A stretch of 20,000 nucleotides of DNA. Source: Nitrospirae bacterium MYbin3 (lineage in GTDB: Bacteria; Nitrospirota; Thermodesulfovibrionia; Thermodesulfovibrionales; Dissulfurispiraceae). Position numbers and translations under genes: made by a program. Positions within the stretch are counted from its first letter, which is position 1; every line of letters begins with the position of its first letter. This document shows, piece by piece, positions 16,181-18,262 of the stretch. The stretch spans positions 50,939 to 70,938 of the forward strand of contig PEAD01000015.1 of the NCBI GenBank assembly GCA_002753335.1. Reading direction: 5' to 3'. Below the pieces are notes generated by a model. That model ran no database searches. It was not told the origin of the DNA and worked only from the letters and a program-made list of their open reading frames with translations.

Positions 16181-16189
16181 ATTTTAGCA
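16181..16189 (-). promoter_or_regulatory. Extended -10 promoter (TGnTAAAAT) for uvrA, probably leaderless
   Basis: TGCTAAAAT lies exactly 6 nt (ATCAGG) before the uvrA ATG; no Shine-Dalgarno is visible. Confidence 0.55.
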
Positions 16190-16192
16190 TTT

Positions 16193-16453
16193 TCATTTGG
16201 CATCTACAGCGCTTTTCTTCTTGCCTCCGGCCTTAATAGCCTTGCCGTCCTTCACTTCGACCATGTCACCGATTTTTATTTCCTTAAGATCCACAATTGC
16301 TGTAGTTTCTCTGCCTTTATGGTCCCTTACCGTAATTGCATTCCCGTCAATGGCAATCACCGTGCCCCTGCAGTCTTCAGCAAAGGCAAAAGACGAAGAC
16401 AGGCAAACGATTAACCCAGTACAAACAGTCCAAAATCCAAGCTTTTTTTTCAT
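16193..16453 (-). CDS. Small secreted beta-rich (OB-fold-like) protein, 86 aa
   Basis: Start moved to MKKKLG (GGGAGG just upstream). Signal peptide ends AFA; mature 'GTVIAIDGNAITVRD..G......IKIGDMVEV' pattern is typical of small periplasmic OB-fold proteins. Confidence 0.75.
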   Translation of the reverse strand: MKKKLGFWTVCTGLIVCLSSSFAFAEDCRGTVIAIDGNAITVRDHKGRETTAIVDLKEIKIGDMVEVKDGKAIKAGGKKKSAVDAK

Positions 16454-16528: not shown

Positions 16529-16804
16529 TTAGCAGCCTTCGATAGCCTTCTTTTTCTTCTTGTCGTCCTTCTTAGGCTCAGCCTTCTTATCGTCAGCTTT
16601 TTTGTCGTCTTTCTTGTCAGCCTTCTTGTCGTCCTTCTTGTCAGCCTTTTTATCAGCTTTCTTGTCGTCCTTCTTGTCAGCCTTCTTGTCGTCAGCCTTA
16701 GCTTCAGCCTTCTTATCAGCCTTCGGAGCGTCTGCTGCGAAAGAGATAGAGGTCATAGCAAATGCAAACAGAATTGCAACTACAAGTGCGAGTACCTTCT
16801 TCAT
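16529..16804 (-). CDS. Secreted low-complexity Lys/Asp-repeat protein with C-terminal Gly-Cys, 91 aa
   Basis: Start moved to the ATG at 16804 (RBS AAGGAGGTGA, 8-nt spacing). Signal peptide MKKVLALVVAILFAFAMTSISFA, then (A/D)DKK repeats and KKKKKAIEGC-TAA. Confidence 0.88.
   Translation of the reverse strand: MKKVLALVVAILFAFAMTSISFAADAPKADKKAEAKADDKKADKKDDKKADKKADKKDDKKADKKDDKKADDKKAEPKKDDKKKKKAIEGC
16556..16720 (-). repeat. Tandem 12-nt repeats encoding (A/D)DKK
   Basis: About 11 units of GCTGACAAGAAG / GACGACAAGAAG type with synonymous variation. Confidence 0.9.
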
Positions 16805-16945: not shown

Positions 16946-18034
16946 CTAATCCTCCATCGGCTTTATGAACATAAAGTATGTCATGGTCCAGTTGCCGAGT
17001 ATTATAAAAATAGTTGCCAATATGCTCTGAAGCGAAAGCGCCGACACACCTGTCAGCGAGTGCCCCACTGTTCAGCCACCGGCAACGGCAGCGCCGAATC
17101 CCATCACGAGCCCTCCGCAAAAAACCTTAAGAACTTCGGAGGCATCACGCGGAATAGTCAGCTTGAACTCGCTGAGCCCCTTAGCGCTCAAATATGCGCC
17201 TAGCGGAATCCCAAAAACATACAGAGCGCTCCACGAACCAGTTGCCACGCCCCAGAAATTGAACATCGGGTCTTTGGCCATGCTGTTGCCCATCGCCAGC
17301 ATTAATGCGGCCTCCGAGGTTGGACCTGCTGCAGAAATACCGCGCGCCTGTCCGCCATAATAGTAGGACGCCCACCACGCAATCATAACTGTCACGCCTA
17401 CGAGCGCACCGCCCACAGACCATGACCAGCCCTTTTTAGGCCCTTTGCCAAAAGGGTTCCCCCTTAGTATAACAATCAAAAAAATAAGCGTTATAATGCC
17501 TATTACCGGCCATTTCATTTCGGGGCCGCCCAATATGTCCCATAAGGCCGGGGAAGATATTGCGTTTTCCCCCTCGCCAATAGAAACCTTGTAACTTTTT
17601 ATATACTGACTTATCGGCTTAAGCGGTCCGTGCATTGTAGCAAGAAGCGACAGCACAAAACCGAAGGTCGTAACAAGAGCGGCCAGCTGCCCTTCGCCCT
17701 GTTTGTACAAAATGCCTGTGCCGCATCCGCCGCCCACCACTATGCCGAGTCCGAAAATATATCCCCCTACGATTGCGGCAATAGGAGCGAACGCTTGACG
17801 TCTGAGACCGTCCTCGCCCAGCATGCCGATGCTCTCCATGAGATTTGAGCCTATTATAGCGATGAAAAGCGCGAGAAACCATGCCCTAAAAAGCGTAATG
17901 TCGTTCACAAAGATCACGTCTCTGAACGCTGAGTTCATTCAGTATCTGCCACGCTGCAAAACAAAGCCGAGCATAACGCCTACGCCAAGACCGCTCAGCA
18001 AAACCATGATAGTTGCCTGTGGTATCTGCTCCAT
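16946..18034 (-). CDS. YeeE/YedE (TsuA-like) sulfur/selenium compound transporter, predicted selenoprotein with two Sec (U32, U321), 362 aa
   Basis: RBS GGGGAGG at 18040-18046. Frame reads MEQIPQATIMVLLSGLGVGVMLGFVLQRGRY-TGA(17939-17941)-MNSAFRD...GGYIFGLGIVVGGGCGTG...GGLVMGFGAAVAGG-TGA(17072-17074)-TVGHSLTGVSALSLQSILATIFIILGNWTMTYFMFIKPMED-TAG. Both TGAs fall at conserved Cys positions of the family (QRxRFC and GGCxxG motifs). Confidence 0.9.
17039..17058 (-). promoter_or_regulatory. Putative bacterial SECIS element for the second Sec codon
   Basis: CGCTGACA-GGTG-TGTCGGCG: 8-bp stem (one G-U) starting after a 13-nt spacer from the TGA, loop GGUG with its first G at +22. Confidence 0.8.
17902..17928 (-). 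promoter_or_regulatory. Putative bacterial SECIS element for the first Sec codon
   Basis: CGTTCA-GAGA-CGTGA-TCTT-TG-TGAACG: 6+4 bp stem with a 2-nt bulge, starting after a 10-nt spacer from the TGA, loop CGUGA with G at +22. Confidence 0.7.
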
Positions 18035-18262
18035 CACTACCTCCCCTTTAGTTTATTAAAAGGCCAAAGGCCTCCTGTGTAACCGGCAAAAAATAAATGC
18101 TATCTTTGTATCATAAAAAGGGGGGAAAAGTAAAACCAGCAATAAAAAAAAGCTAATACGCGGATGAGCTTTGTTTATATGCTTAAATCCAAGAATCGGT
18201 TTAGTGCGTATGTCAGAATTTTAAGAGTGCTTCTCATAAAAGCAGCAAATGAAATTATACCG

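Follow-up and report, generated by a model that had tools for sequence, protein, structure and literature searches.

Two probable selenocysteines in a full-length YeeE/TsuA-type transporter of a Dissulfurispiraceae bacterium

A YeeE/TsuA-family gene with two in-frame UGA codons

The window analysed here is a stretch of 20,000 nucleotides from the genome of Nitrospirae bacterium MYbin3 (Dissulfurispiraceae; contig PEAD01000015.1, positions 50,939 to 70,938). On its minus strand, at 16946..18034, lies a gene for a full-length transporter of the YeeE/TsuA family, which encodes 362 amino acids and includes two probable selenocysteine (Sec, U) codons (PF04143, E 1.6e-65; Protein Data Bank entry 6LEO, E 2.3e-41). 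The frame runs from 18034 to 16946, ends with TAG and contains in-frame TGA at codons 32 and 321 only. Under translation table 11, the open reading frame is reduced to its middle piece of 288 amino acids (17072-17938). A sequence-only reading of the window had placed this short frame between two TGA codons and proposed read-through to 362 residues; both codons were confirmed, as was the TGC at codon 104. Read-through adds the hydrophobic segments 8-26 and 329-347, matching the additional N- and C-terminal transmembrane segments that had been suggested. The strong ribosome binding site corresponds to the Shine-Dalgarno sequence GGGGAGG at 18040..18046 (minus strand), 5 nt upstream of the ATG.

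Alignment to the YeeE protein of Spirochaeta thermophila (StYeeE) assigns both TGA codons to pore positions. The UGA at 17939..17941 (minus strand) corresponds to U32 in the motif QRGRY-U-MNSAF and is equivalent to C22 of StYeeE, the pore residue on the cytoplasmic side. The TGC at 17723..17725 (minus strand) encodes C104, the equivalent of the central pore cysteine C91, and stays Cys. The second UGA, at 17072..17074 (minus strand), corresponds to U321 in AVAGG-U-TVGH and is equivalent to the periplasm-facing, substrate-contacting C293. The proposal that the first and third of three conserved pore cysteines are Sec thus agrees with the alignment. Below, U32 and U321 are also referred to as the inner site (site 1) and the outer site (site 2), and the three pore states are written in the order inner, central, outer, e.g., U/C/U.

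The read-through protein matches PF04143 over the entire profile (1-310 of 310) with 222 bits against a cut-off of 27. Its hydropathy plot displays seven strong segments, the family fold being an hourglass with nine transmembrane helices. A single-sequence AlphaFold model reached a pLDDT of 42, which is too low for use, and the hourglass fold is suggested by the similarity to 6LEO.

Conservation and history of the pore positions

The homologue set comprised 65 sequences with at least 40% identity and at least 330 amino acids, after removal of five duplicate loci. As anticipated by the sequence-only reading, Cys or TGA occupies both TGA columns in this set: 22 genes are U/C/U, eight are C/C/U, 34 are C/C/C, and one is cut by a contig end. 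Neither U/C/C, nor a central Sec, nor a TGA at any other column occurs among the 65 homologues. The central position is Cys in all 65 and in all 33 metagenome loci reaching it. An upstream GGAGG-type site is present in 21 of the 22 U/C/U genes, the remaining gene having Ns upstream.

Copies with two TGA codons were found in 20 of 61 related genomes, all of them in the family of the window's host (20 of 37 family genomes), and selA scores above the cut-off in each of the 20 U/C/U genomes. The named close homologues belong to the Nitrospirota, mostly to the Thermodesulfovibrionales. A survey of the phylum covered 301 genomes, 128 of which had a match; among the 150 matches listed, 18 rows have two TGA codons, all from the same family, and 11 further rows lie outside the 150 matches listed. 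Searching metagenomes with a degenerate pattern for a site 1 Sec yielded 38 loci that are 64-88% identical to the query, some of which may duplicate genomes already counted. This search found no distant lineage with Sec at site 1. In the 28 metagenome loci that extend to site 2, TGA is present there without exception.

In quick and FastTree phylogenies, whose roots are untested, outer Sec is scattered over the order and inner Sec is restricted to one clade. Homologue L036, which is all-Cys and 78% identical, as well as L041 and L044, which have Cys at site 1, nest within the Sec clade. The simplest reading is that the outer site gained Sec first and the inner site later, with occasional reversion. 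A close all-Cys paralogue is also present in nine of the 20 U/C/U genomes, and on another contig the window's own genome carries a further YeeE, which is all-Cys and accompanied by a TusA of its own.

Two side observations concern the history of the family. Residues 230-280 approximately (window 17195-17347) group with the all-Cys sister paralogues with a support of 99, and the remainder of the protein groups with the Sec clade, also with 99; L011, L036, L118 and L136 share this split grouping. The segment looks like a mosaic that arose by gene conversion between paralogues, a retained ancestral loop being the alternative. A full-length homologue outside the taxonomic class, at G230:C63:7993-9054, has a single in-frame TGA.

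Selenocysteine machinery and genetic code

The genome examined has a size of 2.93 Mb and is 93.7% complete. The Sec machinery expected for recoding was found, with selA, selB and selD each above the cut-off and a tRNA-Sec; selD itself carries an in-frame TGA. TGA terminates 729 of the 2170 open frames of at least 200 codons and prfB is present, so UGA is a normal stop codon and, as had been argued before, the code has not changed globally.

These data bear on the possibility that the gene is a pseudogene, a product of sequencing error or part of a genome with a general change of UGA. Public products are truncated, with 60 of the best 120 protein hits cut at both TGA codons, as the sequence-only reading had foreseen for standard pipelines. 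However, 22 genes and 28 metagenome loci share these two TGA codons and are free of any other internal stop. Their recurrence in many separate assemblies speaks against sequencing error, and their presence in a third of the related genomes surveyed supports the earlier argument that chance nonsense mutations are unlikely. Both flanks are under purifying selection, as had been expected, with pN/pS values of 0.22 (codons 2-31) and 0.09 (codons 333-362). Together with the common use of TGA as a stop, this explanation is effectively refuted.

Other probable selenoproteins are encoded in the genome, namely a rhodanese, a Vhu/Mvh-type hydrogenase subunit, a DsbA-like protein and ExtKL. The multi-domain rhodanese (YCAGPT-U), the DsbA-like UxxC protein and ExtKL are located at L105:830-2185, L107:604-1197 and G000:C11:71166-72449. 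In the large subunit of the Vhu/Mvh-type hydrogenase (L106:936-2432; G000:C63:30435-31931), the TGA falls in the N-terminal RICGV-U-P (CxxU) motif and is accompanied by a 7-bp hairpin. The C-terminal CxxC, the motif in which NiFeSe hydrogenases usually carry Sec (PMC13582414), consists of Cys only. A genome-wide hairpin screen yielded 56 candidates, mostly spurious; three of the four tested match known selenoprotein-type families.

SECIS-like hairpins

Each of the two UGA codons is followed by an in-frame hairpin resembling a bacterial selenocysteine insertion sequence (bSECIS). These hairpins were absent from the sequence-only reading and strengthen the case for recoding. The bSECIS model requires a loop of 3-9 nt with G in the first two loop positions, a spacing of 16-37 nt and a minimum free energy (MFE) of at most -7.5 kcal/mol (PMC13188914). 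Hairpin 2, at 17039..17058 (minus strand; CGCUGACA-GGUG-UGUCGGCG), conforms to the canonical model, with an 8-bp stem, a GGUG loop after 21 nt (+22 to +25) and -12.0 kcal/mol. Hairpin 1, at 17908..17924 (minus strand; CAGAGA-CGUGA-UCUUUG), has its loop G at +22 and is weak (-3.6 kcal/mol). Its loop, G position and spacing fit the model and are conserved, with a local energy above -7.5.

A hairpin rule of at least six pairs and a GU-containing loop at +20 to +23 separates Sec from Cys genes at both sites. After site 1 it holds in 22/22 Sec genes versus 3/42 Cys genes, and after site 2 in 26/30 versus 0/35; after the central Cys it holds in 2/65. Among the 729 TGA-ended long frames of the genome, the background is five, two of which are Sec sites. 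The metagenome loci, which were fetched later, obey the rule in 38/38 cases at site 1 and in all 27 scored at site 2. Loop and stem of hairpin 1 are invariant in 22/22 genome and 38/38 metagenome Sec genes.

Synonymous sites point in the same direction. Across 21 U/C/U genes, for which the gene median of the uncorrected synonymous difference is 0.76, the value falls to 0.24 after U32 and to 0.44 after U321 and is 0.85 in the window that follows C104. The equivalent windows of 13 sister Cys genes show values of 0.90 (site 1) and 0.77 (site 2); the drop is confined to the post-UGA windows of Sec genes. Compensatory changes were found in 20 cells with both sides changed at site 2, a number reached in 0 of 500 shuffles, and in eight cells at site 1, where C-G became U-A in 4/21 rows; relatedness of the sequences inflates this test at both sites. 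The hairpin 1 loop CGUGA also resembles the CGUGC loop located 3' of the UGA in the genome's selD (common CGUGn).

Hairpin 2 was also considered as a transcription terminator. It scores terminator-like, but one site was found where 2.2 are expected, and no conserved U-run follows, and this assignment was rejected. An Rfam search at the gene and at selD returned nothing meaningful.

Several points weigh against recoding. Over +13 to +36, hairpin 1 reaches -3.6 kcal/mol against the criterion of -7.5, the MFE fold does not contain it (z -0.18), and it arises in 4647 of 20,000 synonymous recodings (23%), compared with 3 of 20,000 for hairpin 2. In single-sequence folding, neither hairpin is separated from shuffled sequences (z -0.18 and -1.03), the SECIS of SelD doing no better (-0.38). 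The hairpin rule was chosen after the genome set had been viewed. Because hairpin 1 is weak, lies outside the MFE fold and is common among recodings, the evidence for site 1 rests on conservation. Sec is also not indispensable, since the closest named homologue, L036, is all-Cys although its genome has selA, and Cys is likewise found at site 1 of L041 and L044. No selA match was found in the genome of L044 (C/C/U), a genome of unknown completeness. Recoding is deduced from sequence comparison.

A weak hairpin 1 is also what would be expected if only UGA321 were recoded efficiently, with UGA32 acting as a leaky stop or a selenium gate and translation re-initiating at the adjacent Met33. An AUG directly follows the UGA, and the 288-residue frame begins there. 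Met33 is, however, conserved in the Cys paralogues too, the TGA occupies an invariant Cys column, purifying selection acts on codons 2-31, and hairpin 1 is invariant in all Sec genes of both sets. This alternative is considered very improbable. The comparative data are almost certainly to be read as insertion of Sec by SelB at both UGA32 and UGA321, with a separate in-frame SECIS hairpin directing it at each codon.

Neighbouring genes and sulfur context

Two small genes lie downstream of the transporter gene on the same strand. The product of the first (16529..16804, minus strand) has a signal-peptide-like N-terminus, a Lys/Asp/Ala repeat and the C-terminal sequence KKKKKAIEGC. By position it is orthologous to ExtJ-family proteins that end in EGC, and it may represent a periplasmic carrier arm. 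One tested copy among its orthologues scores above the cut-off of NF040942. The second (16193..16453, minus strand) encodes another ExtJ-like protein without the EGC tail, with an NF040942 score of 40.5 bits, below the cut-off of 52.5. An ExtJ-like cluster accompanies 15/22 U/C/U, 0/8 C/C/U, 2/14 sister-Cys and 6/21 other loci, with flanks of differing length compared between loci. Out of 30 ExtJ-like loci, 19 have a YeeE gene within 1.5 kb and all 19 proteins end in EGC; of the other 11, eight end in GGY or SGY and three in EGC.

In the 16529-16804 product, as in L043, L085 and L090, the beta-rich core is replaced by the Lys/Asp/Ala repeat, while the signal peptide and the EGC tail (KKKKKAIEGC in the window) are kept. 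This loss of the core with retention of the tail points to the terminal Cys as the functional part of the protein. ExtJ belongs to the ext cluster of Geobacter and its function is not known (PMC5877670); a search of the ESM Atlas for ExtJ gave no match at 0.9 or above. The second ExtJ-like gene ends with TGA-AAA-TGC-TAA (16184-16195), which would read U-K-C and is identical in a same-genus genome. This possible Sec-containing end occurs in two same-genus genomes only and has no clear hairpin; the stretch may be uvrA upstream sequence.

The ext-type neighbours raise the possibility that the substrate is not sulfur but selenium (selenite, selenide or carrier-bound Se) or tellurite, transported in either direction. 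The ExtJ-family gene, known from a selenite- and tellurite-linked cluster of Geobacter, lies by 15 of 22 U/C/U loci and ExtKL by three of 22. A selenium-associated LysR regulator (NF040786) precedes four of 14 sister-Cys loci, and YedE relatives have been proposed as Se transporters (PMC11097638, PMC5322559). Against this stand the bit scores of the protein: with 84 of 350 and 45 of 200, it falls far short of the cut-offs of Se-type YedE models, and it comes closer to the TsuA models. An importer requiring two Sec residues would presumably be missing when Se is scarce, the adjacent ExtJ has no known function, and deletion of yedE in M. maripaludis is described as giving no clear Se-uptake phenotype. 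As NF040786 LysRs are present in 41/41 relatives, their adjacency is modest evidence. Transport of selenium or tellurite is accordingly regarded as quite unlikely. An archaeal relative of this regulator, HrsM, represses Cys isoforms at adequate selenium (PMC11097638, PMC5322559), and the all-Cys sister paralogue is probably a low-selenium back-up in some relatives.

Several genes of sulfur trafficking occur in the host, which is described as a dsrAB-bearing bacterium of the Thermodesulfovibrionales and in which dsrA was found. Its genome has four TusA-family genes, none of them beside the window gene; one tusA lies with TusB/TusC-like genes on the same contig, about 23 kb away. DsrE-like genes precede ten of the 22 U/C/U loci. 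The same contig (L110, G000:C46:33000-51000) also contains kup, an ArsR regulator and selD between two probable TauE-like membrane genes, in addition to the tusA group. In relatives, kup and ArsR adjoin the Sec-YeeE gene.

Such regulators would suit a conduit of the SoxT1B type, delivering a sulfur signal to a regulator that senses sulfane sulfur, instead of a bulk importer. SoxT1B acts in signal transduction (PMC11582611), ArsR regulators occur in four and PAS/sigma-54-type regulators in six of 22 U/C/U loci. These neighbours are a minority and variable, however, and by the window gene only an upstream HD-domain gene was seen. A signalling role is hence given very little probability.

Proposed transport mechanism

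The published structure of StYeeE places three cysteines in line, about 7 Å apart, through the thin centre of the protein, with C293 located where thiosulfate binds on the periplasmic face and C22 towards the cytoplasm (PMC7449682). The variants C91A and C293A do not complement, C22A does, and a C22-C91 disulfide was present in about half of the purified protein (PMC7449682). C22 adjoins C17 of YeeD, and the published transport model consists of S-H...S hydrogen bonds (PMC7449682, PMC11073785).

In the window protein, the corresponding pore axis would be Sec (outer), Cys (centre) and Sec (inner). The best explanation as a whole, held with slightly more belief than doubt, is a double-Sec inner-membrane protein of the YeeE/TsuA type that operates a covalent sulfur relay. 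The substrate would be reactive sulfur, either thiosulfate or sulfane sulfur that is supplied by polysulfide or by a persulfidated carrier. The selenolate of U321 would attack this sulfur on the periplasmic side, the sulfur would be handed from U321 to C104 and on to U32, and U32 would pass it to a cytoplasmic acceptor of the TusA/DsrE type. Import of sulfane sulfur or thiosulfate by such a Se-S-Se relay is assigned roughly an even chance, with a marginal inclination in favour. In StYeeE the inner pair forms a disulfide; with Cys kept at the centre, this pair could be spared from becoming a diselenide, which is hard to reduce.

Being ionised, a selenolate cannot serve as the donor in an S-H...S hydrogen bond; it is, however, a good nucleophile and a good leaving group. 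For this reason, covalent hand-over is favoured over the non-covalent TsuA model, in which Sec would be real at both sites and would resist over-oxidation or tune the electrostatics of the pore. The non-covalent model accounts for a three-residue axis and motifs as in StYeeE, for the conservation of R78, R79 and R231 in the clade, and for the all-Cys relatives and apparent reversions (L036, L041, L044), which show that Cys is tolerated. It is less readily reconciled with an anionic selenolate that offers no hydrogen donor, with two SECIS hairpins under synonymous constraint at near-saturated divergence, which implies a benefit, and with the fixed order of states, site 1 never being Sec without site 2. 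A non-covalent mechanism is thus considered unlikely.

The covalent relay has its own difficulties. The available Cys-to-Ser/Ala data are compatible with hydrogen-bond and covalent models alike. StYeeE residues K67, R215 and E241 map to Q80, Q229 and S269 and are not kept in register. The TsuA models of NCBIfam are not reached (NF052577, 230 of 400 bits; NF041049, 158 of 645 bits), and because the protein is below these cut-offs, thiosulfate as the substrate is an assumption. No TusA/YeeD-like gene was found beside the window gene or the other U/C/U genes, a neighbourhood screen for CPxP giving one hit, at a C/C/U locus. The DsrE-like neighbour of the relatives was not found in the window's genome.

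A more elaborate version, which is tentative and probably incorrect in at least some of its parts, would be a covalent chalcogen wire across the membrane. Here, the Lys-rich EGC arm of the ExtJ type would feed sulfane sulfur (or selenium) to U321, followed by C104, U32 and TusA/DsrE, and the weak SECIS 1 together with an HrsM-like LysR would switch between the double-Sec protein and the all-Cys paralogue according to selenium supply. If true, this would constitute a Sec/Cys isoform switch for a membrane transporter.

Relation to catalogued selenoproteins and implications

The YeeE/YedE family is an already catalogued selenoprotein family, which lowers the surprise of the present finding. A catalogue of 2026 lists it with one Sec and the motif GUxSG (PMC13188914; also PMC9312934). 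The catalogue representative WP_012471001.1 (174 aa) is a half-size protein with GUPSGH, as are two other examples (PMC12013277), and Peng et al. count five such selenoproteins (PMC5029168). The Sec of a half-size member aligns to U321 (see below), so the outer site was known in principle. Neither the full-length form nor an inner Sec at U32 appears in the consulted portions of these catalogues. Literature searches on the family and on the order found no paper on a two-Sec YeeE/YedE; the tblastn pipeline of BSepDB (PMC13326102) could have captured such genes, the contents of that database not having been compared. YeeE is not mentioned in the accessible text of PMC2398784 and has zero occurrences in that of the preprint by Haft and Gwadz. 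Among NCBIfam models, no Sec-specific one matching the protein was found.

The finding adds an integral membrane protein with two Sec residues to a catalogue that lists the family with one. Among the closest database entries, one in two has lost both ends, and with them two pore residues. Because of such truncated entries, surveys of YedE and YTD sulfur trafficking in Nitrospirota use mis-annotated proteins. This also affects a cultured organism: WP_203472006.1 of Dissulfurispira thermophila T55J is truncated at 289 aa in RefSeq, and its DNA (L126) contains both TGA codons and both hairpins. D. thermophila is described as the only member of the Nitrospirota known to disproportionate sulfur compounds. 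A natural protein with outer and inner Sec and a central Cys is a poor fit to a hydrogen-bond relay and favours covalent sulfur transfer. The natural series U/C/U, C/C/U and C/C/C, in combination with the cultured host D. thermophila, makes the mechanism of YeeE testable.

Comparison with known YeeE/YedE systems

The closest structurally characterised counterparts are StYeeE/TsuA (6LEO, 6LEP, 8J4C, 8K1R) and TsuA of E. coli, a thiosulfate importer. Residues 13-358 of the window protein align to 6LEO (E 2.3e-41). The three pore positions and their motifs are kept, and the YeeD-contacting residues R28, E101 and E261 are retained as R38, E114 and E289. In contrast to StYeeE, two of the three pore cysteines would be Sec, R98 is replaced by Lys, and yeeD/tsuB is not adjacent to the gene.

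SoxT1A/B of Hyphomicrobium denitrificans and the YedE of YTD or tusA-dsrEFH type II clusters likewise represent sulfur import by the YeeE family, which serves energy metabolism or signalling. The sulfur taken up by SoxT-type relatives is destined for oxidation (PMC11582611), and SoxT and the YeeE of YTD clusters have been proposed as importers of sulfane sulfur (PMC11582611, PMC13293266, PMC12998232). The DsrE-like genes by U/C/U loci and the dsrA and tusA group of the window's host resemble these systems. They differ in that Sec is not mentioned in the accessible parts of these sources, and in that the window gene lies outside the tusA cluster.

The selenium-associated YedE/FdhT proteins (TIGR04112, NF033796) belong to the same superfamily and occur in Se-using organisms. 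They are described as Cys proteins whose genes neighbour selD, SirA-like or Sec-lyase genes. The window protein scores far below the cut-offs of both models (45 of 200 and 84 of 350 bits).

The catalogued GUxSG form with one Sec belongs to the same Pfam family. Within the same bacterial order, YeeE also occurs as split pairs of half-size proteins whose C-terminal half contains a TGA (L078-L080; G024:C23, G057:C1), with L078-L080 showing RLADG-U-PSGH. The Sec of L078 aligns to U321, at 27% identity and E 3e-11. The catalogued form is a half-size protein (approximately 170-180 aa) with a single Sec, whereas the window protein has 362 residues, the motif GGUTVGH and two predicted Sec residues. 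The inner Sec, U32, lies outside the C-terminal half that is matched by the half-size protein, and the N-terminal partner halves carry the central Cys only.

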